Source of the DNA: Spirochaetia bacterium
GTDB taxonomy: Bacteria; Spirochaetota; Spirochaetia; SZUA-6; Bin103
Direction: 5' to 3'
Length of the DNA: 64,000 bases
NCBI GenBank assembly: GCA_965198005.1
Contig: CBDAOI010000004.1
Span: forward strand, 1,600,001 to 1,664,000
Shown here: positions 1,555-56,300 of the stretch, one piece after another
How positions within the stretch are numbered: position 1 is the stretch's first letter
Layout of the letters: each line of letters opens with the position of its first letter
Program-made: the position numbers and the translations under genes
The notes under the pieces: generated by a model
What the model was told of the DNA's origin: nothing
The model's input: only the letters and a program-made list of their open reading frames with translations
Databases searched by the model: none

Positions 1555-3207
1555 ATGAGGGGAACTGCTCGGCACACTGACGAGGAACGGCGCGGGGAGC
1601 GCTGCGCGGGGGGATGTGTCCACGTGGTAGCGAAACTGCGGCGGGAGAACCTGGAGCTCAAGCAGCAGGCGGGGTACTACCGGGCGCTGCACCGCAAAGC
1701 GGTGGCGCGCGAGCGGCGACTGAAAGAGCAGCTGAGCGGGGTGCGGACGAAGGCCCGGGAGTTGCGGCAGCAGCTGCGGGAACGGCGGGCGCGGCGCAAC
1801 AACAAGAGCGAGAAGCGCGCCAAGAGCGGCAGCGGCAGCAGCGGCAGCGAGGCGGCGGCAGCGCCGCGCCCGCGGGGCCAGCAACCCGGGTCGAGTGGGC
1901 ATGGCCGGCGCGACCACTCAGCGCTGCCGGCGCAGGAGGAACACCACAAGCTGGAGCCGAACGCGCGCTGCTGTCCCCAGTGTGGCGGGGAGTACGGCGC
2001 GGCCGGCAGCGAGGACTCCGAGGTGCTGGAGATTGAAGTGCGCGCCCACCGGCGGGTGATCAAGCGCCAGCGGTACCACTGCAGTTGCGAGTGCGCCGGG
2101 GTGCCGCGGGTGCTCACCGCGCCGGCGCCGCCACGGCTGATTCCGAAGGGGATTCTGGGGGTCTCGATCTGGGTGCAGGTGCTGCTCGACAAGTACCGCT
2201 TTCACCGACCGACCTATCGGCTGCTGGAAGACCTGAGCACGCATGGCCTGGAGCTTGCGCAAGGCACCGTCACCGACGGCCTGAAACGGCTGGCGCCGCT
2301 GTTTGCGCCGCTGCTGGAGGCGCTGCGCGCGCGCAACCTCCAGGGTGACCACTGGCATGCCGACGAGACCGGCTGGTACGTGTTTGAAGCGACTGACGAG
2401 CAGGCTGGCCAGCGCTGGTGTCTGTGGGTGTTCTGGGGTCGTGAGGCGGTGGTGTTCACCCTTGATCGGACGCGCTCGGCGCGGGTGCCGAAGGAGCATT
2501 TTGCGGGGGTGGCGGGAGGCATCGTGAGTGTCGACCGGTATTCCTCCTACAAACGGTTGGCCAAGGACACCCCGCTGGAATTGCAGTACTGCTGGGCGCA
2601 TGTTCGACGCGATTTTATCCGCGTGGCCGAGAAATGGGACGAGCACCGGGAATGGGGCGAGCAGTGGCTGGAGCTGATCGGCGAGCTGTATCACTTGAAT
2701 GCTGTACGCCTGCCGGTGTGCAACGACCCCGTACAGTGGGCTGCGGCCGACGCGGCGCTGCGCGCGGCGGTAACAGCGATGGCGCAGCGGTTGGAGCGCG
2801 AACTGGCACAGCCGAAGCTGCCTCAGGCACGCAAGAAAGTGCTTACCAGTCTGCGCAACCACTGGTCAGGGCTGATCCGGTTCGTCGACCAGCCCGCTAT
2901 CCCGATGGACAACAATCAGGCCGAACGCGCGTTGCGCGGGCCGGTGGTGGGGCGCAAGAACTACTACGGCTCGGGGGCGACCTGGAGCGGTGAGTTGACC
3001 GCCACGCTGTTCAGCCTGTTCCACACGCTCGAGTTGTGGCAGATCAACCCGCGCATTTGGCTGACCGAGTACCTGAATGCATGCGCCGCCGCCGGCAGTC
3101 GGGTGCCGGAGGACTTTGAGCGCTTCCTGCCCTGGAACCGCCGCGACCGGCAAGCACCGCGCGCCTCGCCAGCCCCGCCAGGGGCTGCCCCGCAGCGCGC
3201 CGCCTGA
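1555..3207 (+). CDS. tnpC: IS66-family DDE transposase
   Basis: Coiled-coil N-terminus, CPQCGG zinc finger, HADETGW, VSVDRYSSY, QYCWAHVRRDF, DNNQAERALR. Confidence 0.93.
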   Translation: MRGTARHTDEERRGERCAGGCVHVVAKLRRENLELKQQAGYYRALHRKAVARERRLKEQLSGVRTKARELRQQLRERRARRNNKSEKRAKSGSGSSGSEAAAAPRPRGQQPGSSGHGRRDHSALPAQEEHHKLEPNARCCPQCGGEYGAAGSEDSEVLEIEVRAHRRVIKRQRYHCSCECAGVPRVLTAPAPPRLIPKGILGVSIWVQVLLDKYRFHRPTYRLLEDLSTHGLELAQGTVTDGLKRLAPLFAPLLEALRARNLQGDHWHADETGWYVFEATDEQAGQRWCLWVFWGREAVVFTLDRTRSARVPKEHFAGVAGGIVSVDRYSSYKRLAKDTPLELQYCWAHVRRDFIRVAEKWDEHREWGEQWLELIGELYHLNAVRLPVCNDPVQWAAADAALRAAVTAMAQRLERELAQPKLPQARKKVLTSLRNHWSGLIRFVDQPAIPMDNNQAERALRGPVVGRKNYYGSGATWSGELTATLFSLFHTLELWQINPRIWLTEYLNACAAAGSRVPEDFERFLPWNRRDRQAPRASPAPPGAAPQRAA

Positions 3208-3212
3208 CGCTG

Positions 3213-4094
3213 GTGCGCTACTGCGGGCGCACCTTCAGCGTGCAGGAGCTGGAGTTGATCCGCAGCCTCATGGCCGAGCATCCGGGCCACCATCGGCTGG
3301 CCCTGTCGCGGCTGGTCTGCGAACGGCTCGACTGGCGGCGCCCCAACGGGGGACTGAAGGATATGAGTTGTCGGGTCGCCCTGCTGCGCATGCACCGTGC
3401 CGGCCTGATCCAACTACCCCCACCACGGCAGGCCTGCTACAACGGCCGCCTGCGGCGTCGCCGCACGCCGCAGGCAGAGCCCCAATCACCGATCACCGGC
3501 AGCCTCCAGGGGCTGTCCGAACTGCACCTGCGCCCGCTCGCCACGGGCGCCGAAGCGGCGCTCTGGCGCGAGTACGTGGACCGCTACCATTACCTCGGCT
3601 ACACCCCGCTGGCGGGAGCACAACTGCGCTATCTGGTGCTCAGCGGGCCGCAGGTGCTCGCCGTGCTGGGGTTTGCCGCCTGCGCCTGGAAGGTGGCGCC
3701 GCGCGACCGGTTCATCGGCTGGAGTGCGGCCCAACGCGAGGCCCGCTTGCCGCTCGTGGTCAACAACGCCCGCTTCCTGATCCTGCCGTGGGTGCAGGTC
3801 AAGAACCTCGCCTCCTGGGTGCTCGCGCGCAGCTGCCGCCGGTTGCCGGAGGACTGGCACAGCCGCTACGGCTACCGCCCCCTGCTGCTGGAGACCTTCG
3901 TCCAGTCCGATCGGTTCGTCGGCACCAGCTACCGTGCCGCCAATTGGATCCACGTCGGGCAAACCCAAGGCCGCGGCAAACTCGATGTCCACAACCAACA
4001 CGCTCTGCCCAAGAAGGACATCTGGCTCTATCCGCTCCGCCGCGATTTCCGCCGCCGCCTCTGCGCCCCGCTCGATCCTCACCCCAACCAGTAG
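3213..4094 (+). CDS. DUF4338 (DruA-like) domain protein
   Basis: RYHYLGY, AWKVAPRDRFIGW, NNARFLILPWV..KNLAS, LLETFV, GTSYRAANW..VG.T.GRG. Confidence 0.85.
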   Translation: MRYCGRTFSVQELELIRSLMAEHPGHHRLALSRLVCERLDWRRPNGGLKDMSCRVALLRMHRAGLIQLPPPRQACYNGRLRRRRTPQAEPQSPITGSLQGLSELHLRPLATGAEAALWREYVDRYHYLGYTPLAGAQLRYLVLSGPQVLAVLGFAACAWKVAPRDRFIGWSAAQREARLPLVVNNARFLILPWVQVKNLASWVLARSCRRLPEDWHSRYGYRPLLLETFVQSDRFVGTSYRAANWIHVGQTQGRGKLDVHNQHALPKKDIWLYPLRRDFRRRLCAPLDPHPNQ

Positions 4095-4377: not shown

Positions 4378-5301
4378 TTAAACCGACCCGGCGGCTCCGG
4401 CACCGAGACTACCACCGCCCCTCAGCCTCGGGTCGAGCAGATCCCTCATGGCGTCGCCGAACATGTTCAGACTGTAAATCACAATAGTCAGGCAAAAACC
4501 GGGCCAGAGAGCCAGCCGTGGCGCCGTCTCCATGAATTCGCGCCCTTCCCGGCTGAGCAGACCTCCCCACTCAGGAATCGTGAATGGCAGACCGTATCCG
4601 AGGAAGCTCAGAGAAGCAATACTCAGGATCGTGCCTCCTACGTTTATGCTGAATATGATGATTACGACAGGCGCAATATTGGGCAGGAGATGTCGGATAA
4701 GTGTTCTCCATCTTGAGGAGCCAATCGCTTCCGCCGTCTGAAAATACACATTCTCTTTAATGCCAATAACGGCGCCTCTAACTACTCTTGAGCCGCCGAT
4801 GCCTCCGGCGATCCCCAGGACCAGTATTATCTGTAACACACCCCGTCCCACTATGGACATTAACGTTAACAACAGGAGCAATCCCGGGAAACACATCCAG
4901 GCATCGACAAATCTCTGCACAACCAGGTCGAATTTACCACCAAGGAATCCTGAGGTGCCACCTATCAGGGTACTGACCACAACATTGAGAGCGGTCGTGG
5001 CCAGACCAACAAGTAACGAAATACGAGCCGCGAAGATAAGGCGGCTCAAGAAGTCTCGTCCCATGTGGTCTGTACCGAGGAGATACTGGGTTGATGGGAC
5101 CTTCATTATGTCATACAGGTGTACTTCATCATATGGATAAGGAGTCAGAACATCGGCAAAGATAGCTACAAAAATCAATAGCAATATGATAATCCCGCAG
5201 GCAGTACCCAACGGCTTCTCCTTGACCAGCCTGATGAAGAAATCAGCCAGACCGGCACGTCCATTTGGCTCACTTACAGCCGACGGTATCTCGTCACTCA
5301 T
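4378..5301 (-). CDS. Peptide/nickel ABC permease (OppC/DppC)
   Basis: LGTDHMGRD, RHLLPN, SLSFLGYG..PEWG, FGDAMRDLLDPR. Confidence 0.93.
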   Translation of the reverse strand: MSDEIPSAVSEPNGRAGLADFFIRLVKEKPLGTACGIIILLLIFVAIFADVLTPYPYDEVHLYDIMKVPSTQYLLGTDHMGRDFLSRLIFAARISLLVGLATTALNVVVSTLIGGTSGFLGGKFDLVVQRFVDAWMCFPGLLLLLTLMSIVGRGVLQIILVLGIAGGIGGSRVVRGAVIGIKENVYFQTAEAIGSSRWRTLIRHLLPNIAPVVIIIFSINVGGTILSIASLSFLGYGLPFTIPEWGGLLSREGREFMETAPRLALWPGFCLTIVIYSLNMFGDAMRDLLDPRLRGGGSLGAGAAGSV

Positions 5302-5319: not shown

Positions 5320-6327
5320 TTATCTATAACGGACCCTAGGGTCTAAAAAGGGATACATCAGGTCGATCACTAGATTGATCCCCATAACCGCGGTGGCGAA
5401 AAACAGGTTTATTCCGGAGACCGCCGGGTAGTCTCGGTCATTGAGGGCGTTCACCATGAGGCGACCTAGCCCCGGCAGGTTGAATATGTTTTCTATGATA
5501 ACGGAGCCGCCTACCAGGAGAGGCAACTGCATGCCAATGAGGGTAACTACCGGGATGAATGCATTCTTGAGGACGTGTCTCATAACAACCACCCTCTCCT
5601 TCAGACCCTTGGACCATGCCGTCCTGATATAGTCCTGCCTGAGCACCTCCAGCATTGCGGTACGCGTCAGCCGCATGGTGGCTGCAGAATAGGCCGTCCC
5701 CAGAATCAGGCTGGGAATGATGAACATCCCCAGATTCCCCAGCGGGTCTTCCGTGAAAGAAATCAGCTCCATCGGAGGCGACCAGCCCCACCAGATTGCC
5801 GGGAAGATAATGACCATCAGGGCCAGCCAGAAGTTAGGCGTTGCCAGGCCGATGACGGCGATGGTGCGTCCAGCATAGTCGGTGGCTGTATCCTCACGAA
5901 TCGCCGAGTAGATGCCGACTGGCAGGGCTATCACCAGCCCGATTACGATTGCCATGGCGCCAAGCTGAATGGTTACCGGCAATCTACCTATTATCTTCTC
6001 CTCTATCGAAAAACCGCCAAGAGTCCATGATTTGCCAAGGGTGCCCTGCAGGAGACCCTTGAAGTGGGACTCACCGGTACCCCAGTCAGGGGTTGGCAAT
6101 ACTCCTATCCAGCGTCCATACTGCACGTGAACATGCGCGTCTAATCCCAGATAACGCATAATAGCTTCACGGTCAATCTCGATCCCCGCACCCCAGGCCT
6201 GCATCCTATTCACCGTTGCGTCTATGACATCGCCCGGAAGGAGCCGGACCGCGAGAAAGACCAGGATGGTCAATATAAACAGGGTGGGGATTATCAGCAA
6301 TAACCGCCTGATGATATAGGCTCTCAC
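5320..6327 (-). CDS. Peptide/nickel ABC permease (OppB/DppB)
   Basis: GTG start (V)RAYIIRRLL; EVLRQDYIRTAWSKGL, FNLPGLG, RDYP. Confidence 0.93.
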   Translation of the reverse strand: MRAYIIRRLLLIIPTLFILTILVFLAVRLLPGDVIDATVNRMQAWGAGIEIDREAIMRYLGLDAHVHVQYGRWIGVLPTPDWGTGESHFKGLLQGTLGKSWTLGGFSIEEKIIGRLPVTIQLGAMAIVIGLVIALPVGIYSAIREDTATDYAGRTIAVIGLATPNFWLALMVIIFPAIWWGWSPPMELISFTEDPLGNLGMFIIPSLILGTAYSAATMRLTRTAMLEVLRQDYIRTAWSKGLKERVVVMRHVLKNAFIPVVTLIGMQLPLLVGGSVIIENIFNLPGLGRLMVNALNDRDYPAVSGINLFFATAVMGINLVIDLMYPFLDPRVRYR

Positions 6328-6349
6328 GTGACACACCTCATTACGATTG

Positions 6350-6565
6350 CCCCCGTCATTCCGGTGAAAACCGCAATCCACCTTCCACGTCTTTCCGGCC
6401 CCTTCCAGTGAAGGGCTTGTCCTGAACGAAGTTGAAGGGCGCGGCATTCTCTAAGGTGCGAATGACCCCTGCCAAGAAACTCGCCTCTCACCGTTTTGGG
6501 GAGTTCAGAGGGGTGAAACCCCTTTGAAACGGGGAATCAAGGGGGTTTCCCCCTTGATTCCCCCT
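6350..6565. repeat. Cluster of REP-like palindromes
   Basis: CGTCATTCCGGTGAAAACCGCAATCC; GTCCTGAACGAAGTTGAAGGG; CAGAGGGGTGAAACCCCTTTG; GGGGAATCAAGGGGGTTTCCCCCTTGATTCCCC. Confidence 0.55.
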
Positions 6566-6954: not shown

Positions 6955-8778
6955 CTAATAACCCATTGCTTCCTTCAGCTCCTGGTCGATCCAGAGGCGG
7001 GCGGCGATGACATACTCAAATTGGGTTTGTCCTATTTGCCATTCTCTGTTAAGACCTTTGACCCACGGCTGGGTCGCGCCTATCGATGGTAGTTCCTCAC
7101 CCCATACGGACCAGTACCTCTCTATTGCGTACATATTCAGCTCTCTCACCAACGGCAATTGCTCTTCTTCTGTGCTTACCAATCGGCCGGCTTCGTACAT
7201 GGCGTCATAAGCCGGATCGCTCACATTGGGGCGGTTAAAGGAAGAACCAGTCACGTAAGTACTCATCGTTCCGAAAGGCGCTTTCCTAGTGCCCAATACC
7301 GTAGCAATCATGTCATGATCTCTATTTGCAGCGCGAGGACCTAGCTCCGCACCTGTCACTGGCTCAATCTCTAGATCAACGCCAATGTCACGATAGTATG
7401 TAGCGGCTATTAATTCTGCATAGCTCACATCGGCGGCGTCATGCCAGGTCAATGTGGCCTTGAACCTGATGCCGTCGGCCCCGCGCGGATACCCCGCCTC
7501 ATCAAGGAGCTTCTCGGCCCCTGCCGGGTCATACATATAGCCTTTCTTGACCTCTTCGGGCCACTCTTCAAATGGGATGCCAGCCACTGGGACATCGTTG
7601 CCTACCGTTCCCTGAGGTATCCAGTTTCCCCACCCTTTGAAGTAGGTATCGTGAATTGTCTCAAAGTCCAGTGCCATGTTCATTGCCTTGCGCACCCGGA
7701 TGTCATCAAAGGGTGGCCTCTCCGTGTTCATGCTAAAACTATTAAGCGACCGTACCCAATGCTCGGTTATGACGATTTCGGGGTTGGTCCGCTGCAGGCT
7801 CTCCACTTTGTCGATACTGCCGAACATCCTATAGGCATGCAAGCCGGTGTAATCGATCTTACCCGTGCGCAGCGCCGCCAGCTGCGTTGCGTGTTCTGGT
7901 ATAATCAGGCCCCTTAACTCGTCAATATAGGGCAGTCGGTTCCCCGGGTATTTTTCGTCGTCGCTCCAGTAGTTACGATTCTTGGTATAGGTTACAGAGC
8001 TGCCGTCGACATACTCAGTCAGCATAAAGGGCCCAGTGCCGACCACGTTCCTCCAATCCTTCATGTCTCCGTATTCCTCGATTACCTCCCGTGGAACAAT
8101 GATGTGAACTACAGGGTCGATGATAGACCGCAGCGCACGGGGGTCTGGCTGCTTCAGCTTAAAAACAACCGTCCATTTGTCCGTTGCTGTTATCGATTCG
8201 ATCGGTATAGCATCCCACCCATCATACCCGAGGCCGGGGGTAGGTTCGGCTTCGGAGAATTCGCCCATAGCAAGATTGCGTTGAAAGGTATATTCTACAT
8301 CATAGGCAGTCATCTCCCGACCGTTCACCGGTGGCTTGTCATGCCAGTGAACGCCCTTGCGGATGTGGAAGGTATAGGTGAGGCCGTCCTCGGAAATATC
8401 CCAGCTTTCCGCCAGCGCACCTCTTAAGGTAGATAGAGGAGTGGAAAAACCTGAGAAGTCAAATATGTCCCTATCTATTCCCCAGTCGCCGATGCTTAGC
8501 TTCTCTAGAACACCTTGGCTCATTATGTAGAGGACACAGCCGTGGGAATAATACGGGTCAGCAGTCGGACAAAGCCCCTTTTCACTCCTGCCAATGGTTA
8601 ATGTCCCGCCATACTCCGGCGCGGTCACCATCTTGCCGGTGGTGGGGTCGAGCACCATTTCCTTCTCGGCAGCGGCTGCCGGCGCCTCTTCCTCTGCGCC
8701 GGCGGCCCAGAGGCCGGTTGCGGTCATTACGAGGACCAACGCAACCGCGAAGGTCATTCTAATTCTTACAATGTCCAT
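6955..8778 (-). CDS. Family-5 ABC substrate-binding protein (paralog 1)
   Basis: Signal peptide ...TGLWAAG; GALAESW, GTGPF, RVRKAM..ALD, A.KLLDEAGY; GGAG RBS. Confidence 0.93.
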   Translation of the reverse strand: MDIVRIRMTFAVALVLVMTATGLWAAGAEEEAPAAAAEKEMVLDPTTGKMVTAPEYGGTLTIGRSEKGLCPTADPYYSHGCVLYIMSQGVLEKLSIGDWGIDRDIFDFSGFSTPLSTLRGALAESWDISEDGLTYTFHIRKGVHWHDKPPVNGREMTAYDVEYTFQRNLAMGEFSEAEPTPGLGYDGWDAIPIESITATDKWTVVFKLKQPDPRALRSIIDPVVHIIVPREVIEEYGDMKDWRNVVGTGPFMLTEYVDGSSVTYTKNRNYWSDDEKYPGNRLPYIDELRGLIIPEHATQLAALRTGKIDYTGLHAYRMFGSIDKVESLQRTNPEIVITEHWVRSLNSFSMNTERPPFDDIRVRKAMNMALDFETIHDTYFKGWGNWIPQGTVGNDVPVAGIPFEEWPEEVKKGYMYDPAGAEKLLDEAGYPRGADGIRFKATLTWHDAADVSYAELIAATYYRDIGVDLEIEPVTGAELGPRAANRDHDMIATVLGTRKAPFGTMSTYVTGSSFNRPNVSDPAYDAMYEAGRLVSTEEEQLPLVRELNMYAIERYWSVWGEELPSIGATQPWVKGLNREWQIGQTQFEYVIAARLWIDQELKEAMGY

Positions 8779-8802
8779 AGTAGCTCCGTATGTAGATTTT
8801 TC

Positions 8803-8842
8803 GAGAGTATTGCGGAGCGACTTGCGCTCCCTGGCTACTCTC
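8803..8842 (-). promoter_or_regulatory. Conserved GAGAGTA...TACTCTC stem-loop before SBP start
   Basis: Outer stem GAGAGTA/TACTCTC and inner GGAGCG/CGCTCC; outer stem recurs at 25639-25679 and 51173-51217. Confidence 0.7.
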
Positions 8843-8938
8843 ATGCCCGCAACAGCGGGCGCGCCCGCCAACGCGGACGGCCAGTTTGAGTCAAATGGCT
8901 GAAGCGCGCGGCGTGTGACTCACCGGGTTCACCCGGGC

Positions 8939-8974
8939 TCACGCCGCGCGCGCGTGCGGTTCTTTCAGTATCAT
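8939..8974 (-). CDS. Putative leader peptide MILKEPHARAA
   Basis: AGGAGGTG SD; same peptide at 25533-25568 with synonymous differences. Confidence 0.7.
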   Translation of the reverse strand: MILKEPHARAA

Positions 8975-9305
8975 CTTCACCTCCTTCTTGGGGCACAGGG
9001 TGCCCTGCGAGATGGCTGACGTAAGATGGGATCCGCGTGCGCGCCCCATCATGCAAACGCCCACCGCTCGGCGGACGTCGGGACCTGCGTCACAACGCCA
9101 CGCGGGGCGGTGGTCGGCCGAGCAACGAATGTGTTTGGCCGGCGACGTGGGCGGTCGGTTCTGTGACGGTGAGTTGGGGGGCGGGGATCCAGGACCGGTG
9201 CAGTCGTAGCCGGCCGCTACCCCGGTGCTGAAGGCGACGGCGTGCGCGGGGGCACGTAGGGGGCGATCAGCCGGAGCGGTTAGTTGTTTCTCGGTTTGAA
9301 AAAGT

Positions 9306-9315
9306 GGGGGGGGGG
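9306..9315. repeat. G10 homopolymer (C10 on SBP sense strand)
   Basis: Direct count; homologous tracts at 24996, 51549, 56962. Confidence 0.9.
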
Positions 9316-9319
9316 TATG

Positions 9320-9970
9320 ATGCACCGGTCGCGTCACAGCGAACCGGTCACTGCGCTGCCTGTCATCGTGACCCTTCATGACCATCCGTCGAACCCCAAG
9401 CGAGGCACGCTAGCATAGGCGCGGCGCGCCGTCAACGACTCGTGGGGGTCACCGAAGGTCACCGCCAACCCGTCACCGCGCTGTCGCCATCCTGGCGCCT
9501 CATGCCATCCTGGCACGTCATCATGGCAGTTCATCACCGATCCGTCGAACCCCAGACGAGGCAAGCTTGCTATGGACGCGACCACCCTGTCAACGACTCG
9601 CACGTCACCGAACATCACCGGCCACCGGTCACTGCGCTGACTGTCGTCATGGCGCGTCATCATCGATCCGTCGAACCCCACCCCAAGCGAGGCAAGCTTG
9701 CTATGGAGGCGACCACCCTGTCAACGACTCGCAGGTGACCGACCGTGACCGCCAGCCGGTTACTGCGCTGACTGTCATCATGGCAGTTCATCACCGTTCC
9801 GTCGAACCCCAGGCGAGGCCAGCTTGCTACGGACGCGGCCACCCTGTCAACGACTCGGACGTCACCGAACATCACCGGCCACCGCGCTGGCGGTCGTCGG
9901 GGCGCATCATCTGCATTCGCCGAACCCCTAACGGTGCACTCTCTTGCGAGCGCGGCCACCCTGTCAACAG
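9320..9970 (-). repeat. Tandem array of five ~117-158-bp non-coding units, each with a TTGAC(A/G) box facing the SBP operon
   Basis: GTCAAC anchor at 9431, 9589, 9720, 9846, 9963; shared TCCGTCGAACCCC and CACTGCGCTGACTGTC blocks. Confidence 0.9.
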
Positions 9971-10004
9971 CGCCGACCGGCACCTCCCGGGGTGTCACGC
10001 CGGA

Positions 10005-24876: not shown

Positions 24877-24905
24877 TTGACGTTTCTTGCGCCGCGCCCT
24901 ATACT
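24877..24905 (+). promoter_or_regulatory. Near-consensus sigma70 promoter heading the SBP-2 leader
   Basis: TTGACG-17bp-TATACT, followed by a copy of the repeat unit and C12 (24996-25007). Confidence 0.75.
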
Positions 24906-25194
24906 ACCGGTTCACGACTCGACGGATGCCGATGAAGCGCCATGATGACATTCAGAGTAGTGGCCGGTTGGCGGTGACGCAGCAACCGGTTTACTCCCCC
25001 CCCCCCCGCTAGCCGCCCAGCCAACCGCGCGGCAGCCGAGTGCGCGGCCCCGGTGCTGACTGCGGCACCATCGATCGGTGTGGCGCACACCCGCCACGCC
25101 TCCCTGTCCGGAACGGCAGACCACGTCGGCCGCAGCCTCCACCAGTGCACTGAGCCAGCGTTGCCGGCAACCCCAGCTCGAGCACCCAGCTACA

Positions 25195-25520
25195 GCTCAC
25201 CTTCCGTGACTGCGTTCCCGTGTGGGGTGACCATAGCCGCGCCGCCTGCGGCAGCTCCCGTCCTTGTTCGCGGGCTTTCTCCGTTCATCGTCGGCGCACG
25301 TCCTTGGATTCCCGACACGGCCCGCGGCGCCATCCGCCACCGGCGAAGCTGGGATCTCCCGGCTCCCGCGCAGGGTGCCGTGACGCCTCGCAATATCGGC
25401 GTCCCGGGTGTGGCCGCCCTCGCGAGCGGCGGCGCATGACTCGGGGCCGCCGTGGGTCGCTAACCCTTCGACGTATGACCCTTTCATTCACAACAACCCT
25501 GCCGGTTTTTGCCGGCGCAC
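25195..25520 (-). ncRNA. Internally deleted group II intron 5' remnant
   Basis: Begins GTGCGCCGGCAAAAACCGGC; GAAGGGTTAGCGACCCAC...CCGAGTCATGCG...CGCGAGGG; GGGAGCCGGGAGATCCC; GATGAACG...AAGCCCGCGAACAAGG, colinear with the intact intron at 52225. Confidence 0.75.
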
Positions 25521-25532
25521 AGGAGGTGCAAA

Positions 25533-25568
25533 ATGATACTCAAAGAACCGCACGCGCGCGCAGCGTGA
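25533..25568 (+). CDS. Putative leader peptide MILKEPHARAA (copy 2)
   Basis: AGGAGGTG SD at 25521; TGA lies in a stem. Confidence 0.7.
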   Translation: MILKEPHARAA

Positions 25569-25703
25569 ACCCGCCGAGTCCCACGCCGCGCGCTCTTAGT
25601 GGATTTGACTCGGACTGGCCGCCTGCGTTGCGGGCTGCGAGAGTAGCCAGGGAGCGGCAATCCGCTTCGCAATACTCTTAAAGATCAAGATACGGAGTTA
25701 CGT

Positions 25704-27527
25704 ATGCTAATTGTACACACGAGGACCTTCGCGGTTGCGTTGGTCCTGGTTCTGACCGCAACCGGCCTCTGGGCCGCGGGCGCAGACGAGGAGCCGGCAG
25801 CCGCCGCCGAGAAGGAGATGGTGCTCGATCCGACCACCGGCGAGATGGTGGAGGCGCCGCAGTATGGCGGGACACTAACCTATGGCCTGGTCAGTTGGGC
25901 CGCGAACGTTGATGACTGGTATGGCTACGCGAAGGATAACACCGGTTTGGTTAATGAGCAGCTCGCCATCTGGGACTGGGGAATAGATAGGGACGTCTGG
26001 GACTGGCGGATCTTCGCAGAGACACCTGTATGGGCCATAAACGGGGCACTGGCGGAAAGCTGGGAAACGCCCGACGATACCACCATTATCTTCAACATCC
26101 GCAGGGGCGTTCACTGGCACAACAAGGCGCCGATGAACGGTCGGGAGCTCACTGCCGAGGATGTAGAATACAACTTTCACCGCTATTTTGGGAATAGGTT
26201 GGCAGGGACCGAGTTCAGTGAAGCCGAACCTACCCCAGCGGCACGTAACCTCGTAGCTTTGCCAGTCGAATCGGTAACGGCCACCGACAAGTATACGATG
26301 GTCGTCAAGCTGGAGAAGCCAGACCTCAGCGCCGTGAAACACTTTATCGGCTACGGCTACGGTGGATCGGGTACGGTAATGCCTCCGGAGGTCATCGAGC
26401 AACACGGCGACTATCAGGATTGGCGGAACACGGTCGGCACCGGACCCTATGAGCTGACGGAGGTGGTCGAAGGCAGCTCCAGGACCTGGACCAAGTATCC
26501 TGACTACTGGGGCTTCGACGAAAAATACCCGGACAACCGCCTGCCCTATGCTGACGAGATACGGGCCTTGCGGATGGCGGAGTCAGCAACCCGTCTGGCG
26601 GCTCTGCGCACGGGTAAGATTGATATCCTGGGTCCCGGCGCCAGTACATTGAGGTCGATCGACACGGTAGAGAGCCTCGAGCGGACCGACCCGGAAATCG
26701 AGCTGTGGCCGTTCAAGTTTCGGTCCGACAACCAATTCTATATCGTCCGTATGGACATACCGCCCTTGAATGATATCCGGGTGCGCCAGGCACTGCAGAT
26801 GGCACTGGACCTGGAGACCGTTGTAGCTACCTACTTCAAGGGTCGTGGCGATGCGACTCCGCAGGGACATTTCGCCAATGATGTGCCGGGGATTGGCACG
26901 CCATTTGAGGAGTGGCCCGAAGAGGTCAAGAAAACCTATCGGTATGACCCGGAAGGGGCCGAAGCGTTGCTTGATGCGGCCGGGTATCCGCGCGGCGCCG
27001 ACGGCATCAGGTTCAAGATGGGCATGGCCTACTTTGAACGATACGATGTGAGCTATGCGGAACTGGTCGCCGGATACTGGCGCGAGATTGGCGTGGACAC
27101 GGAGACTGATGTTTTAGCTGGTGGGTCAGCCGAAATAACAATGGTCTATAATGATCCAGATCAGGATACGTACATAATTAGATGGGGGGAAGGGGCCTTC
27201 AGGTATGGTATCCCGGATCGTCTGACATCACAATTTTATAAAGGCAACCTCAGCACCGGCCACTTGAACGACCCCGAATATGACGCCATGGCTGACGCCG
27301 TCATGGCCGCTACCACCCTCGAGGAGATGAATAGGCTGGTAAAAGAAATAAATATGTACATCACGGAACAGCATTTTAAGATATGGGGTCCTGAAACCCC
27401 ACAGTACCAGGCAACGCAGCCGTGGGTCAAAGGTTTTAACGGAGAACTCGGATCTTTTTCCGACGGGTTGAAACACTTAGCCCGCATCTGGATTGACCAG
27501 GAGATGAAGGAAGCAATGGGTTTTTAG
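25704..27527 (+). CDS. Family-5 ABC substrate-binding protein (paralog 2)
   Basis: Same motifs as 6955-8778. Confidence 0.93.
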   Translation: MLIVHTRTFAVALVLVLTATGLWAAGADEEPAAAAEKEMVLDPTTGEMVEAPQYGGTLTYGLVSWAANVDDWYGYAKDNTGLVNEQLAIWDWGIDRDVWDWRIFAETPVWAINGALAESWETPDDTTIIFNIRRGVHWHNKAPMNGRELTAEDVEYNFHRYFGNRLAGTEFSEAEPTPAARNLVALPVESVTATDKYTMVVKLEKPDLSAVKHFIGYGYGGSGTVMPPEVIEQHGDYQDWRNTVGTGPYELTEVVEGSSRTWTKYPDYWGFDEKYPDNRLPYADEIRALRMAESATRLAALRTGKIDILGPGASTLRSIDTVESLERTDPEIELWPFKFRSDNQFYIVRMDIPPLNDIRVRQALQMALDLETVVATYFKGRGDATPQGHFANDVPGIGTPFEEWPEEVKKTYRYDPEGAEALLDAAGYPRGADGIRFKMGMAYFERYDVSYAELVAGYWREIGVDTETDVLAGGSAEITMVYNDPDQDTYIIRWGEGAFRYGIPDRLTSQFYKGNLSTGHLNDPEYDAMADAVMAATTLEEMNRLVKEINMYITEQHFKIWGPETPQYQATQPWVKGFNGELGSFSDGLKHLARIWIDQEMKEAMGF

Positions 27528-46163: not shown

Positions 46164-47066
46164 TCAGGCCGCGCCGGCTGCCGCCTCCAGGTCGTGGTAG
46201 TCCGCCAGCACCCGCTGCAGCTCGGCCTTGGCGCTCGCGCCGAGCGGCGTCATCGGCAGCCGGTAGCGTTCCTCGACCAGGCCCGCCAGGTGCATCGCCG
46301 CCTTGACCGGAATCGGGTTGGTGTCCAGTCCCATGAGCGCGCTGATCACCGGCAGCAGCTTGTAGTGCTCGGCCCGCGCTGCGGCGGTGTCGCCGGCCAG
46401 CATGCGGTTGACCAGCGCCACCATCGCCTCCGGGAGCAGGTTGCTGGTGACCGAGATCACCCCGTTGCCGCCGAGCGCCATCAGCGGCAGCGTTACCTCG
46501 TCGTCTCCCGAGAGCACCGTGAAGTCCGGCGGCCGGCGGCGGATCAGATCCATCATTTGCGAAATGTCTCCGCTCGCCTCCTTCACGCCGACGATGTTGG
46601 GATGCTCCGCCAGCGCCAGCATGGTCCGGTTGTCGATGTTCTTGCCGACGCGGCCGGGGATGTTGTAGACGATCAGCGGCAGGTCGACTTGGTCCGCGAT
46701 CAGCCGGAAGTGGCGCAGAAAACCCTCCTGAGACGGCTTGTTGTAGTAACCCGCGACGTGCAGACTCGCCTGCGCCCCGACCTCGCGTGCGAACCGGGTG
46801 TGCTCCAGCGCCTCGACCGTGTTGTTCGACCCGCACCCGGCGATCACCGGCACGCGTCCGGCGGCCTGCTCGAGCACCACGCGGATCACCTCGTGGTGCT
46901 CGTCATCGGTCAGGGTCGGACTCTCCCCGGTGGTGCCGACCGGTACCAAGCCGGTAATCCCGGCCGCGATCTGCCGGTCGACCAGCCCGCGCAGGGTGTC
47001 GCGGTCCAATTCTCCGGACGCGGTGAACGGCGTAACCAGCGCCGTGTAGGTGCCTTCAAACCTCAT
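46164..47066 (-). CDS. dapA: 4-hydroxy-tetrahydrodipicolinate synthase
   Basis: ALVTPF, GTTGESPTL, YYNKP, YNIPGR, VKEASG. Confidence 0.95.
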   Translation of the reverse strand: MRFEGTYTALVTPFTASGELDRDTLRGLVDRQIAAGITGLVPVGTTGESPTLTDDEHHEVIRVVLEQAAGRVPVIAGCGSNNTVEALEHTRFAREVGAQASLHVAGYYNKPSQEGFLRHFRLIADQVDLPLIVYNIPGRVGKNIDNRTMLALAEHPNIVGVKEASGDISQMMDLIRRRPPDFTVLSGDDEVTLPLMALGGNGVISVTSNLLPEAMVALVNRMLAGDTAAARAEHYKLLPVISALMGLDTNPIPVKAAMHLAGLVEERYRLPMTPLGASAKAELQRVLADYHDLEAAAGAA

Positions 47067-47832
47067 GCGTGCTCTCCTTGGCTAACATCTCGTCGATGAA
47101 GTCGTCGATTCCAAAAAAACCGCTCTTGCGCGGTTCGGCGGCGAGCCAGGTCGCCACTTGTAACGCTCCGGCCGCCAGCGCGGCTCGTCCGCGCGCGCGG
47201 TGGGTCAACTCGATCGTGTCGTCGAGCGAGTCGAACAGCAGCACGTGCGTGCCCGGCTCCTCGCCGCCGCGCACCGACGCCACGTGCAACTCGTCGGCCT
47301 CGATCGGGCGGTCCAGCCGTTCGGTTGCCACCCGCCGCTTGCGCGTGCTGCTGGCCAGCACGGCGGCGGCCAGCGTGAGCGCCGTGCCCGACGGAGAATC
47401 CGCCTTGCGCCGGTGATGGCGTTCGAACACCGCCGCGTCATAGTCAGGGAACGGCTCCATCAGGGCCGTGGCCTGGCCCGCCAAGCGCAGGAACAACTGC
47501 ACGCCCAGCGAGAAGTTGGTCGCATGCAGGTAGCCGCTGCAGCCGCCCTCGATGATGGCGCGCACTTCCTCCAGCCGCGCGCCCCAGCCGGTGGTGCCGA
47601 CCGCGGCGTTGAGCCCCGCCGCCGCGTAGCCGCGCGCGTTGTCCACCACCGCCTCGGCGATGCTGAACTCGATCGCTACGTCGGCGCCCGCCGCGATCTC
47701 CGGGGTGAGCCGGGCGGCATCGGCATCGGCGGCGACCGGGTCGACGCGGGCTACGATCTCGTGCCCGGCGGCGGCCGCTACGCGCGCGGCCTCGCGGCCC
47801 ATGCGGCCGTAGCCCACGATCGCGATCCTCAT
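47056..47832 (-). CDS. dapB: 4-hydroxy-tetrahydrodipicolinate reductase
   Basis: GYGRMG, GTTGW, NFSLG, E.HH..K.DSPSGTA. Confidence 0.95.
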   Translation of the reverse strand: MRIAIVGYGRMGREAARVAAAAGHEIVARVDPVAADADAARLTPEIAAGADVAIEFSIAEAVVDNARGYAAAGLNAAVGTTGWGARLEEVRAIIEGGCSGYLHATNFSLGVQLFLRLAGQATALMEPFPDYDAAVFERHHRRKADSPSGTALTLAAAVLASSTRKRRVATERLDRPIEADELHVASVRGGEEPGTHVLLFDSLDDTIELTHRARGRAALAAGALQVATWLAAEPRKSGFFGIDDFIDEMLAKESTHEV

Positions 47833-49374: not shown

Positions 49375-51156
49375 TCAGAATCCCATTTCTTTCTTCAGGG
49401 CACTATCAATCCAGAGACGGGAGAAGATCACTTCCTCGCCCCCGCTTGATATCAGTTCACCGTTATAGCCTATGAGCCACGGCTGGTTCACCGAAAACTG
49501 TGGAAGCAAAGGACCATATATCGTCCAGTATTGCTCTAATGCGTACATGACCAAGTCTGGCACCAGCCTGTTCCGCTCCTCGACGGTGGTCGCGGCTGCG
49601 GCTGCGGCATGCATGGCGTCATAAGTCGGGTCGTTGACGCTGCTATTTACACCATCCGTGGTAAACCCACTCATGATTGACACTGCCCACTGCATGGAAA
49701 CAGCATACGCCGTATCGTTACTGGCCATTTCGTATTCCTGAGCTTTTCTTCTGGGGCCCCATGCAGCGTTTGGCGTTACTTCAACCTCCACATCAACGCC
49801 AATCTTCTTCCAGTATGAAGCGGCTAATTCCGCATAGTTTAGATCGAAACGCTCAAGGTGCATCAACACGGTCTTGAATCTAGTGCCGTCCGCGCCGCGA
49901 GGATACCCGGCAGCATCAAGCAACGCTTCGGCCCCTTCCGGGTTATACGTGCGGCCCTTCTGGAGCTCCTCGGGCCACTCTTCAAATGGGGTGGAACCGT
50001 CTGTCATGAAACGGCCCAGCCGCCCTTGAGGCATCGGATCTGAGAAACCCTTGAAGTACGAATTGTCAATGGTTTCGAAGTCCAGTGCCATGTTCATTGC
50101 CTTGCGCACCCTGATGTCGTCAAAGGGTTCTATCTGAGTGTTCATTGCAAAACCATTGTCCGATCGAAACCGTACCGGCCACAATTCGACGTCGGGGTTG
50201 GTCCGCTGGATGCTCTCTACCTGCTCGATAGTCCGGAGTTGAGCTACCCCGGCCACACCCACGTAATCCACCTTACCCGTGCGCATTGCCGCCAGTTGTG
50301 TTGCCACTTCGGGCATAATCAGAGCCCTTAACGTGTCAACATATGGCAAACGGTTTTCCGGGTATTTTTCGTCGTAGCCCCAGTAGCCAGGATTCTTGGT
50401 ATAGGTGATGGAGCTGCCCTCGGTCCAGTCAGTCAGCTCAAAAGGACCGGTGCCGACCAGGTTGCTCCAAGCCGTTACGTCCCCGTGTTCCTTGATCACC
50501 TCGGGGGGGTACATGACAGCAAGGGAGTCGTCGAGGATAACCATCAGCGTAAGGAGATTTGGCTCCTTCAGCTTGAAAACCACCGTCCATTTGTCGGTGG
50601 CCGTTATGGATTCGAATGACACCCCAGTCAAAACACTATAAGCAGCGCTAGGTTCGGTGAAGCCGCTGCCCAGACCCAGAGTACGGTGAAAGTTATATAC
50701 GACATCGTCGGCAGTCAGCTCCCGACCGTTCATTGGTGCCTTATCGTGCCAGTGAACGCCCTGGCGGACTTTGACGACAACTGTTTTGTCGTCGGGCATT
50801 TCCCAGCTCTCCGCCAGAGCCCCCCTCGTGTACTTTGGAGCGGCCATGGTCGGGAAGTTATATTCGTCCCTGGGCGTTGCCCAGTCGCCGATGCCTAGCT
50901 TCTCTACGACCAGGCCCACGGCCACGACACCCCCACTCAAATGTTTGTCAGTATGCGAGGGCGATTCTTTCTTGACGTAGGTTATTGTCCCGCCATACTC
51001 CGGCGCGGTCACCATCTTGCCGGTGGTCGGGTCGGTCACCATTTCCTTCTCCATCGCCGCGGCCGGCTCCTCCTCCGAGGCAGCCGCCCAGAGGCCGGTG
51101 GCGGTCAGTGCGAGGCCACACAGCACGGCGAGCGAAATGCGCATTACGAAATGCAT
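49375..51156 (-). CDS. Family-5 ABC substrate-binding protein (paralog 3)
   Basis: Same motifs; AGGAG RBS; hairpin 49271-49302 downstream. Confidence 0.93.
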   Translation of the reverse strand: MHFVMRISLAVLCGLALTATGLWAAASEEEPAAAMEKEMVTDPTTGKMVTAPEYGGTITYVKKESPSHTDKHLSGGVVAVGLVVEKLGIGDWATPRDEYNFPTMAAPKYTRGALAESWEMPDDKTVVVKVRQGVHWHDKAPMNGRELTADDVVYNFHRTLGLGSGFTEPSAAYSVLTGVSFESITATDKWTVVFKLKEPNLLTLMVILDDSLAVMYPPEVIKEHGDVTAWSNLVGTGPFELTDWTEGSSITYTKNPGYWGYDEKYPENRLPYVDTLRALIMPEVATQLAAMRTGKVDYVGVAGVAQLRTIEQVESIQRTNPDVELWPVRFRSDNGFAMNTQIEPFDDIRVRKAMNMALDFETIDNSYFKGFSDPMPQGRLGRFMTDGSTPFEEWPEELQKGRTYNPEGAEALLDAAGYPRGADGTRFKTVLMHLERFDLNYAELAASYWKKIGVDVEVEVTPNAAWGPRRKAQEYEMASNDTAYAVSMQWAVSIMSGFTTDGVNSSVNDPTYDAMHAAAAAATTVEERNRLVPDLVMYALEQYWTIYGPLLPQFSVNQPWLIGYNGELISSGGEEVIFSRLWIDSALKKEMGF

Positions 51157-51313
51157 CAGATAACTCCTGTTGCTCGAGAGTACTGAATCGACTGCCGGCC
51201 CCTCGCCTACTCTCGAGTTATGCCTGCTTCAACGCCGGCGAGCACAAGCGAGGGCGACAGCGCGGGTCCCCAGGCGGTACGGCGCTTGGAGACGAGCCCG
51301 GGTTTAGTCGTGG

Positions 51314-51340
51314 TTAGTCGTAACCGGTCTTGGGTGCCAT
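51314..51340 (-). CDS. Putative leader peptide MAPKTGYD
   Basis: AAAGGAGG 5 nt before ATG, at the homologous leader position. Confidence 0.55.
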   Translation of the reverse strand: MAPKTGYD

Positions 51341-52224
51341 CCCATCCTCCTTTGACGTGCGCGCACCACCGGCCGTTCGGATCGCGTCGGGACCTGCGTC
51401 CCAGCGTCCACGCGGCTGGCGAGGCGAGTTGGATTGGATTGGCCGGCGACGCCGGCGGTAGAGTTGATAAGTGGGTTGATGAGGCCCGGTACGCCGGTCT
51501 CGGCGCTGAACGGACACCGCGTGAGGCGCCGGATGGGTTAGCTGTGTTGGGGGGGGGGGACTCCTCACCATTAAGCAAGCGCGCCGCGAGCTGATTTTCA
51601 GCAAATCTCGGCGCGCGGCTGTCAGGGGAACAGAGTGTCATAAGCGTTGACGTGTTATAAGTCACTCAAGCCCTCCGCAGGTGAGGCACAGCCATACCCA
51701 GATGTAGTCGCGATGTCGCGATTGACTGGATCCCACCCTATCGTAACCTCCGCTCCCGTGGACGTCAACCACGAATCGGCCCAGCAATTCTCGGTGAACG
51801 GCAGTCGATGGCCTGAAGAGACAGTCTGGAGGGGCCCCCACCATTCGCCAACCCCCGCCGCGAAAGGATTCCGGGGGGGAGGGGATGGGCAAGGGTAGGA
51901 CGCGCCGGTTGCGTTGCCCCTAACCGGTGGCAGCGCTGAGTAGTGTTTTCAGCCATCTTTTGCATCCGTTCAAACCTGAGACTTTCAGTATGCCACCCCT
52001 GCGGCACAAATCAACAGGAAAAACTGGCGAATTGAAGGTTTCTTGAGATTTCTTTCGGGCAGCCGCGGCAGCCGAGAGCCCCTCGCGGCGCCGACTCGGG
52101 CGCATCGCCCCTCCAGAGCCGTCATTCGCCGGCGATGTGGCCGTCCGCAGGCCGTTCACCGTCCACGTCGGCCTCACAGCGGCCCGCTGAGGGCATTCCA
52201 GCCCCTCGGGGGTAGCCTGGGTAC

Positions 52225-55899: not shown

Positions 55900-56300
55900 C
55901 TACGCGACGCCTTCCCGCGGCTTGTCGGGCGGCTGGTTGCGGCTGCTCCAGAACAGCCCCTCGATGATTCCCTCGACCTTCGACAGCCGGTCCCCGATGT
56001 TGACGACGCGTGCGGTGAGTTCCTTGAAGCCGGCCTGCATCTCTGCCCGCAGCCGGCCGTCGCCGGCCCTTATTTCGTCCCGCAACGCGCTCTCGACGCC
56101 CTTTATTTCGTCCCGCAACGCGCTCTCGACGCCCTTTATTTCGTCCCGCAACGTGCTCTCGACGCCCTTTATTTCGTCCCGCAACGCGCCTCACTGGCCC
56201 GCAACTCGCGCAACTCGTGACGGATGCCGCGATTGGACGCCAACGTCACGGTGCCGAGGGCGATTGTCGCTGCGATGATCCCTATCAGCTCCAGGCTCAT
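55900..56300 (-). pseudogene. Second N-anchored coiled-coil repeat gene, frameshifted near 56190
   Basis: MSLELIGIIAATIALG... then LRDEIKGVES(A/T) repeats in another frame. Confidence 0.7.
56067..56189. repeat. 33-bp coding tandem repeat, ~3.6 units
   Basis: TTTATTTCGTCCCGCAACG(C/T)GCTCTCGACGCCC. Confidence 0.92.

Follow-up and report, generated by a model that had tools for sequence, protein, structure and literature searches.

Introduction

In the leader peptides of amino-acid operons (trpL, hisL, pheL, leuL), a short open reading frame (ORF) with its own Shine-Dalgarno sequence overlaps one arm of a strong hairpin. Homopolymer-based phase-variable families include the contingency loci of Neisseria and Haemophilus and the vlp-type lipoprotein families of Mycoplasma. 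Closest to the present case are two leaders of Escherichia coli: the tna operon leader, in which tnaC is linked with Rho-dependent termination (PMC8429421), and the toiL upstream open reading frame (uORF) of topAI-yjhQ, which is reported to sense ribosome stalling in general and to be tied to premature termination by Rho (PMC12121999). The element analysed here is a leader that precedes ATP-binding cassette (ABC) transporter operons in a 64,000-nucleotide stretch of Spirochaetia DNA (the window; positions 1600001-1664000 of contig C4 of genome G000, an assembly of 4.9 Mb, 66% GC and four contigs). It contains a mini-ORF encoding MILKEPHARAA, a set of hairpins, C-rich blocks, a run of C residues and promoter-like repeats, and it recurs throughout the genome in front of genes for substrate-binding proteins (SBPs).

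Results

Most operons of an expanded transporter family carry the leader

All three SBP genes flagged in the window encode an SBP_bac_5 domain and have BPD_transp_1 permeases downstream (Pfam); leader 2 is a plus-strand element, leaders 1 and 3 are minus-strand ones. A preliminary description of this DNA had proposed a common layout for the three leaders; every element that it listed lies where it was placed, and the family proved far larger, with 86 copies.

8779-9440 (-): leader 1, upstream of SBP1
24877-25703 (+): leader 2, same subtype as leader 1, upstream of SBP2 (25704-27527)
24877-24905, 24996-25007, 25533-25568 and 25639-25679 (+): leader 2 promoter-like site, C12, uORF and hairpin H5
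51157-51768 (-): leader 3, subtype B, upstream of SBP3 (49375-51156)
51740-51768, 51549-51559 and 51314-51340 (-): leader 3 promoter-like site, C11 and uORF MAPKTGYD
51248-51258 with 51198-51207, and 51176-51214 (-): leader 3 candidate pseudoknot strands and H5

The 86 copies, leader 1 among them, are the matches in the genome to a profile of the uORF-to-start module (M3) of leaders 1 and 2. An ORF of at least 100 residues begins within about 150 nt of M3 in 82 of these copies and one of at least 560 residues in 66; among the latter, 4288 of 4290 ordered pairs give a BLASTP alignment of more than 400 residues, at a median identity of 48.9% (5th-95th percentile 32.9-56.1%). Conversely, 156 frames of the genome match the window SBPs at a BLASTP E value of 1e-20 or below; start codons were assigned to 129 of them, and 72 of these 129 SBP_bac_5 paralogs are preceded by an M3 leader. 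The mean pairwise identity per column is mostly 0.83-0.86 in the leader, 0.73-0.84 over the first ~130 nt of coding sequence and 0.37-0.78 farther in. The signal-peptide coding region (8650-8778, -; 25704-25830, +) is conserved at the nucleotide level among paralogs, unlike the mature parts.

The distribution of the leader is narrow. With a 232-nt module as BLASTN query, seven of ten genomes of the same genus were matched, five of them in many copies; none of 13 sister-genus genomes was, and one of the 17 others in the order gave a match, with an E value of 3e-4 over 25 bases. A 17-letter uORF pattern occurs 68 times in G000, 26 times in G001, 15 times in G006 and once in G007, and has a single match in each of five among the other ~390 genomes sampled from the class; the reversed pattern, used as a control, has no match anywhere in the same genome set. 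The leader is present at 23 of 79 loci encoding SBP relatives, all 23 in records titled Spirochaetia, and at none of those from records titled 'bacterium', Dehalococcoidia or Aggregatilineales. We conclude that it is a lineage-specific composite 5' leader heading most operons of a greatly expanded family-5 ABC SBP family. SBPs 43-56% identical to SBP1 also occur in many copies in leader-less metagenome-assembled genomes of other phyla (loci L016-L064), which indicates that the transporter family has expanded in several unrelated lineages of such genomes.

Pieces of the leader are found in sponge metatranscriptome contigs from four studies (four runs). We read this as presence only, for the contigs are short, break at repeats, give no starts, ends, strand or level, and could include DNA carry-over.

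The uORF appears to be selected as a peptide

8939-8974 (-): uORF of leader 1, MILKEPHARAA followed by UGA (column counts, parsimony, ORF census)
8978-8986 (-): Shine-Dalgarno sequence of this uORF, AAGGAGGTG

As had been noted from the window, leader 2 encodes the identical peptide at 25533-25568 (+), the two uORFs differing at CTG/CTC and GCG/GCA. Across 124 unique regions, the uORF starts with ATG in 104, GTG in seven and TTG in two, which makes 113 canonical starts; six have a non-canonical triplet and five lack the anchor, leaving 119 copies scored for the Shine-Dalgarno sequence. Of these, 117 match AAGGAGGTG over at least four bases and 88 over at least six, and the uORF and its Shine-Dalgarno sequence are, as had been supposed, conserved well beyond background. 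Most of the 113 canonical-start copies have 11 codons (88) or six (18; other lengths, seven), and residues 2-6 read ILKEP in 94, VLKEP in seven, TLKEP in four and otherwise in eight, so that the conserved core is M-[IVT]-L-K-E-P.

The substitution pattern within this core was examined in an alignment of 133 unique copies, 70 from G000 and 63 from other genomes, in which the minor-allele fractions at codon positions 1, 2 and 3 are as follows.

Codon 3 (Leu):.008,.030,.211
Codon 4 (Lys):.015,.008,.045
Codon 5 (Glu):.008,.008,.241
Codon 6 (Pro):.008,.000,.169

By Fitch parsimony, on a tree built from columns other than those scored, codons 3-6 show 59 changes at their four third positions versus ten at the eight first and second positions, a per-column rate about 12 times higher. 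The third-position variants are almost all synonymous (A or G for Lys and Glu, with one exception; all four bases for Pro; C, G or T for Leu). Codon 7 is the most variable, with 29, 5 and 25 changes at its three positions and His, Tyr, Trp, Glu, Arg, Gln or a stop as outcome, and codons 8-12 are near-invariant at all positions, which fits a constraint on them as one arm of helix H1, described below. A stop replaces codon 7 in 18 of the 113 copies with the bases downstream still conserved; this indicates that the functional end of the peptide is Pro6 and that the ARAA tail is constrained as RNA rather than as peptide. In copy L029, an in-frame deletion of 6 nt leaves the uORF stop in frame. The interleaving of saturated and invariant columns in the leader points to selection and argues against recent copying. 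Taken together, the uORF data indicate a strongly initiated uORF of 11, sometimes six, codons that is under selection as the peptide M-I-L-K-E-P. MILKEPHARAA has one codon each for I, L, K, E, P, H and R and three for Ala; no codons for one regulatory amino acid are clustered in it, the Ala codons lying in the stem and being dispensable in the six-codon variants.

A 148-residue frame that runs from 9385 across the C-run to the uORF stop was considered and rejected as non-coding, since the blocks that it crosses are aperiodic and the frame depends on a run of variable length. The strand opposite the uORF (8939-8956, +; 25551-25567, -) carries a terminator-like hairpin with a U-rich tail, the complement of AAAGAACCG, which could stop antisense transcription in every leader; as an explanation of uORF conservation it fails, because it cannot account for the codon periodicity.

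RNA structure of the leader

8991-9005 (-): H0, small hairpin GGGCAC-CCU-GUGCCC immediately before the Shine-Dalgarno sequence of the uORF (folds)
8904-8951 (-): H1, a 12-bp GC helix (8940-8951 with 8904-8915) with the apical hairpin CCGGG-UGAA-CCCGG (centroid fold)
8887-8922 (-): Hx, UGAGUCA (8916-8922) with UGACUCA (8887-8893), enclosing the 3' arm of H1 (alignment)
8845-8879 (-): H3 and H4, GC hairpins, H4 being GCCCGC-UGUU-GCGGGC (fold)
8803-8842 (-): H5, GAGAGUA...UACUCUC with inner stem GGAGCG-CAAGU-CGCUCC and conserved internal loops GCCAG and GCAA (fold)

The uORF stop had been placed within a stem, and this holds for the family. In the centroid fold of leader 1, GCGCGCGGCGUG (8940-8951), which comprises uORF codons 8-11 and the UGA stop, pairs as the 5' arm of H1 with CACGCCGCGCGC (8904-8915); 97.2% of the cells of this helix are paired across 70 copies, and its individual pairs are paired in 96-100% of the 133 copies. 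Hx, which may form a pseudoknot with H1 or else replace it, is 85-95% paired, its closing pair changing from U-A to C-G and G-C, and appears in minimum-energy folds of leader 2. Only H4 of the H3/H4 pair is found in most copies, with pairs that interchange C-G, U-G, U-A and G-C. The GAGAGTA/TACTCTC hairpins reported for the three leaders lie at 8803-8842, 25639-25679 and 51176-51214; as H5, this hairpin is paired in 92-93% of cells, with an inner closing pair seen as G-C, G-U and A-U. At the place of H0, other copies have hairpins of unrelated sequence, which form discrete variants in the alignment.

Pairing statistics were taken from counts on a structure defined by hand. Over 70 copies, 93.1% of the cells of the whole structure pair versus 31-54% for controls in which the pairing partners were slid, and the covariation score is 0.080 versus 0.017-0.030 for the slid versions. 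Changes on both sides are found at 12 pairs versus 5.8 +/- 1.5 in shuffles, none of 500 of which reaches the observed value. RNAalifold recovered only six pairs from the gappy 70-sequence alignment, and a mutual-information scan of the 133 copies gave no strong new pairings, its top pairs being mostly linker or neighbouring columns. Two candidate pairings were rejected: a switch between uORF UACUC and H5 GAGUA, because 27 of the 133 copies have UACUG, and a helix H2 folded in leader 1 (GCCAUUUGA with UCAAACUGGC), whose 5' strand is not conserved in the family.

In leaders 1 and 2, the scan called nothing terminator-like on the leader strand, and the columns after H1 are variable and not U-rich. 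When a ribosome was placed at the start, at Pro6 or at the stop of the uORF in leaders 1 and 2, H4 and H5 persisted; the SBP Shine-Dalgarno sequence is unpaired in the free folds and in all three constrained folds, which argues that no switch masks the ribosome-binding site. A scan of the window with Rfam 15 gave only a group II intron and two tRNAs, with nothing in the leaders, and permissive scans of leaders 1 and 3 (E up to 10) had a best E value of 0.68, all hits being far below the gathering threshold, in agreement with the earlier failure to recognise a known leader or riboswitch.

Upstream modules

The leaders are built in the order M1 units (0-7 per locus), poly-C run, blocks M2 and M2b, and M3.

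9334-9971 (-): six tandem M1 units of ~125 nt upstream of SBP1 (Tandem Repeats Finder period 131, six profile matches)
9306-9315 (-): poly-C run, C10, of variable length, the 5' boundary of homology between leaders (sequence)
9010-9305 (-): conserved non-coding blocks M2 and M2b, 65 and 72 genome copies

Each M1 unit has TTGACA or TTGACG, a 17-nt spacer, a weak -10 box (TAGCGT or AAGCTT) and a conserved tail of ~85 nt (GGGGTTCGACGGATG...CCATGATGACAGTCAGCGCAGTGACCGGTTGGCGGTGAC), and a unit is also present at 24877-24995 (+). The genome has 162 of them, in arrays of 0-7 upstream of SBP operons, and Rfam does not recognise them; they may represent stacked promoters, arrays of operators or genes for small RNAs. 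Promoters had been assigned to both leaders 1 and 2. The promoter-like site of leader 2 (24877-24905) does pass a sigma-70 scan, at 10/12, but the scan calls no M1 promoter in leader 1, because the -10 boxes there are weak.

The C-runs reported for the three leaders are C10 (9306-9315), C12 (24996-25007) and C11 (51549-51559). Genome-wide, there are 160 C/G runs of 8-28 nt versus 25 A/T runs, and 86 of the 160 lie on the same strand within 3 kb upstream of an SBP gene. The run changes faster than the sequence around it: among seven leader pairs with 95% identity or more in the 200 nt that follow, five differ in run length, and in these five pairs the 60 nt before the run are unrelated. The ortholog of the SBP1 leader in G001 has C7 (versus C10 in G000) and a different upstream flank, and in one RNA-library contig the C-run region is three bases shorter. 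A megablast comparison of C-runs between G000 and other genomes gave no informative pair, only the L011 ortholog being comparable. No sigma-70-like hexamers flank the run.

The blocks that follow the run include GACGCAGGTCCCGACG (9076-9091) and CGTCGCCGGCCAA (9135-9147), both of which are, as first noted, shared by leaders 1 and 3; each has just these two occurrences in the window (chance expectation 0.01). M2 and M2b show no 3-base coding periodicity. Their first ~200 nt in leader 1 are C-rich and G-poor, resembling a Rho-utilisation (rut) site, with a C/G ratio of 1.3-3.9. Over 76 leaders, the 200 nt after the C-run, a stretch upstream of the uORF, average 39.8% C and 27.8% G; the C/G ratio exceeds 1.5 in 41 of the 76 versus 3.0% of genome windows, its median being only 1.53. 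Rho itself is encoded in the genome (RNA-binding domain PF07497, 117.6 bits, above cut-off, in an open frame of 583 residues).

Leader 3 and subtype B

The three leaders had been treated as one homologous set. Leaders 1 and 2 do form a single subtype, but leader 3 belongs to another, subtype B, which is not matched by the leader-1/2 profile and of which we collected 44 unique copies, 37 from G000. These copies also have a strong Shine-Dalgarno sequence and a mini-ORF, which ranges from AUG-UAG through MQN and MYD to the eight-codon M-x-P-K-T-G-Y-D; leader 3 itself encodes MAPKTGYD, as reported (51314-51340, -). Codon changes are synonymous (Gly GGA/GGG/GGC/GGT, Thr ACC/ACG, Gln CAA/CAG). The outer stem of H5 has compensatory changes in six of eight pairs, and a candidate pseudoknot of CCCUCGC with GCGAGGG is 89-100% paired and nearly invariant.

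Leader 3 had been said to have no clear promoter, yet a sigma-70-like site, TTGACG-17-TACGAT, is present at 51768-51740, beyond the span originally given for that leader. The site is contained in a ~550-nt repeat (51550-52100, -) that ends exactly at the C-run of leader 3 and has ten further near-full-length copies in the genome (89-98% identity) and more than 15 partial ones; it counts as an upstream module of a second type. Adjoining this module and facing away from it is a group II intron (Rfam RF02005, 169.5 bits, 52259-52483, +), followed by its RVT_1 reverse-transcriptase ORF (52491-54068, +).

Neighbouring genes in the window

6955-8778 (-): SBP1, a 607-residue family-5 substrate-binding protein (Pfam)
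5320-6447 and 4378-5301 (-): two permease genes downstream of SBP1 (Pfam)
8776-8787 (-): SBP1 start codon (8776-8778) and Shine-Dalgarno sequence GGAG (8784-8787), left free by all constrained folds (sequence)

An IS66-family transposase (1555-3207) and a DruA-like (Druantia) ORF (3213-4094) lie on the plus strand just past the first transporter operon. In the third operon, homologs of dapA and dapB (46164-47832, -) directly follow the single permease gene, in the place expected for a second permease. A 33-nt tandem repeat is found at 56066-56189 (3.8 copies, 96% matches).

Discussion

Proposed mechanism

We suggest, with a probability of about 0.4, that the leader exerts a translation-coupled, probably Rho-dependent, control of read-through over the whole transporter regulon. 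Rho would load on the long untranslated C-rich leader. A ribosome that translates the mini-ORF, and probably pauses when Pro6 is in its P site, would melt helix H1 or prevent it from forming and would shield, or couple to, the polymerase, so that ribosome occupancy would decide whether transcription reads through into the operon. Because the same peptide is found in about 70 operons, the signal is more plausibly global than specific to a single paralog; translation state or the supply of charged tRNA could in this way set the level of the whole uptake regulon.

In favour of this proposal are the size and conservation of the family, the coding signature of the uORF, the codon-7 stops that point to Pro6 as the pause point, the pairing statistics, the C-rich stretch together with an encoded Rho, and the strong Shine-Dalgarno sequence and synonymous codon changes of the subtype-B mini-ORFs. 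Several observations weigh against it. The C-rich stretch is located upstream of the uORF, unlike the rut site of the tna leader, which adjoins the stop codon. H1 has no U-tract, and no conserved alternative antiterminator pairing was found for it. The structure was derived from the same sequences on which it was tested, most paired columns never vary and the covariation is thin. The RNA data are assembled contigs only, in which no transcription start, 3' end or ribosome footprint can be read. Codon 2 is AUA in 128 of 132 copies (97%) and codon 4 is AAA in 127 of 133 (95%), while the genome as a whole encodes Ile by AUA in 5% of cases and Lys by AAA in 14%; the retention of such rare codons implies a constraint beyond the peptide. 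Six of the 124 copies keep the ATACTCAAAGAACC bases with no canonical start, so these bases may be constrained at the RNA level. Finally, the wide range of mini-ORFs in subtype B suggests that ribosome loading may there outweigh any particular peptide.

Alternative explanations

The leader could instead be a contingency locus, in which slippage at a hypermutable poly-C run and changes in M1 number would switch individual operons on or off, or raise or lower them, in different cells, with the uORF and hairpins as a constant shared module that acts in translation, stability or anti-polarity. We regard this as a possible but somewhat unlikely account. The excess of C/G over A/T runs (160 versus 25) and the position of 86 of them upstream of SBP genes agree with it, as do the variation in run length (five of seven near-identical pairs, C10 versus C7 in the ortholog, three bases fewer in the RNA contig), the range of 0 to 7 M1 units per locus, and the conservation of the leader and the first ~130 nt of coding sequence ahead of a diverged mature protein, a layout that resembles the phase-variable lipoprotein gene families of mycoplasmas. 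However, recognisable -35/-10 hexamers are absent around the run, the run is in no conserved reading frame and M2 is aperiodic, run lengths rest on assemblies in which long-read homopolymers can be miscalled by a base or two, and the peptide-level selection on the uORF would be left unexplained. Switching of this kind and Rho-dependent read-through control are mutually compatible. A two-layer control of more than 100 transporters, stochastic for each operon, cell by cell, through the poly-C run and the promoter-repeat stack and common to all through an M-I-L-K-E-P arrest/Rho gate set by translation state, is conceivable, but we think it improbable; a limited literature search found no description of such control for transporters and none of the leader element. 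Sensing could also reside separately in the structured H4-H5 module, which would be a riboswitch aptamer or the target of a protein and would act on initiation or mRNA stability, possibly through a pseudoknot of CUGGC with GCCAG (CCCUCGC with GCGAGGG in subtype B), with the uORF as an accessory. Conservation above 90% of the H5 loops as well as the stems, the compensatory changes in six of eight pairs of the H5 outer stem in subtype B, the candidate pseudoknot strands that differ between subtypes and yet are complementary within each, at the same places, and a distance of 15-20 nt from the Shine-Dalgarno sequence all favour a sensor. We nevertheless hold it to be distinctly unlikely: no Rfam family matches even at E values up to 10, the pseudoknot pairs are almost invariant (a compensatory change at one of seven in subtype B and none in subtype A), the transporter Shine-Dalgarno sequence is unpaired in all folds, and it would be unusual for a single ligand to serve about 100 transporters whose substrates presumably differ.

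It is very unlikely that the leader has no regulatory role and was spread by concerted evolution (gene conversion) or as a promoter-leader cassette, with the uORF as a by-product. Such an origin would suit leaders that are mosaics of discrete module variants, for example the several unrelated H0 hairpins, the sharp break in homology at the C-run and the extension of conservation into the signal-peptide coding region. Against it, third-position and linker columns are saturated (18-47 changes) beside columns that never change, which is not the pattern of recent conversion; the element has been kept in many copies in at least five genomes of the genus, and the deletion in L029 preserves the stop frame. 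The preliminary description had pointed to ribosome-mediated attenuation, with ligand-sensing leader peptides that could tune each transporter paralog; in its classical form this would involve an intrinsic terminator and a peptide that senses the ligand or amino acid of its own paralog. Although the stop codon does lie inside a stable stem and the window does have two peptide classes, the leader strand has no terminator-like site, the missing U-tract argues against attenuation of this type, and the peptide has no repeated codon for one regulatory amino acid. Moreover, 94 of the 113 copies share one ILKEP core in front of diverged transporters, so sensing by individual paralogs is unsupported and any signal should be common to the family. 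We consider this reading the least credible of all, and the earlier interpretation as a whole is only partly supported.

Comparison with known systems

Our proposal that the leader controls read-through by a Rho gate draws it closest to the tna leader. Both have a short conserved leader peptide, the proposed stall would hold prolyl-tRNA in the P site, Pro directly precedes the stop in 18 of 113 copies here, Rho is encoded here, and the proposed output is read-through of a Rho-terminated leader. The peptide is, however, unrelated to TnaC and has 6-11 codons rather than 24, the C-rich stretch precedes the uORF rather than adjoining its stop, where the tna leader has its rut site, the leader occupies about 70 loci versus one in E. 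coli, and no evidence of a small-molecule effector was found here. As reported for toiL, the uORF would respond to ribosome stalling in general, is not tied to one amino acid and is, in our proposal, linked to Rho. Stalling in toiL is reported to open a structure that hides a downstream ribosome site, whereas here no constrained fold pairs the SBP Shine-Dalgarno sequence; the downstream ribosome site is thus not sequestered in the manner of ermCL or toiL, in either the free or the constrained folds of leaders 1 and 2, nor is there any sequence similarity to toiL. We suggest that the element shares the logic of uORF-linked Rho-dependent leaders, though not their sequence, peptide length, rut position or masking of the ribosome-binding site.

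The leader resembles trpL, hisL, pheL and leuL in having a short ORF, with its own Shine-Dalgarno sequence, that overlaps a hairpin arm, but it has no tandem regulatory codons, U-tract or Rfam match and it precedes transporters, not biosynthetic genes. With phase-variable families it shares a large family of exported paralogs, a conserved 5' region and signal peptide, and a hypervariable homopolymer upstream; unlike them, its run is neither between promoter hexamers nor in frame, the products bind nutrients and are not surface antigens, and switching is only proposed.

What is known of leader peptides, and of Rho termination linked to uORFs, comes from single operons in model bacteria. In the present lineage, which is uncultured, sponge-associated and high in GC, one conserved mini-peptide leader stands in front of about 70 operons of a single expanded transporter family, together with hypervariable homopolymers and tandem promoter-like repeats. 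If our proposal is correct, the symbiont would co-ordinate, and perhaps diversify, a huge nutrient-scavenging repertoire by cis elements alone, and the leader would provide both a short candidate arrest peptide, whose uORF has in effect been scanned by mutation in the 133 natural variants, and a novel structured RNA module absent from Rfam.

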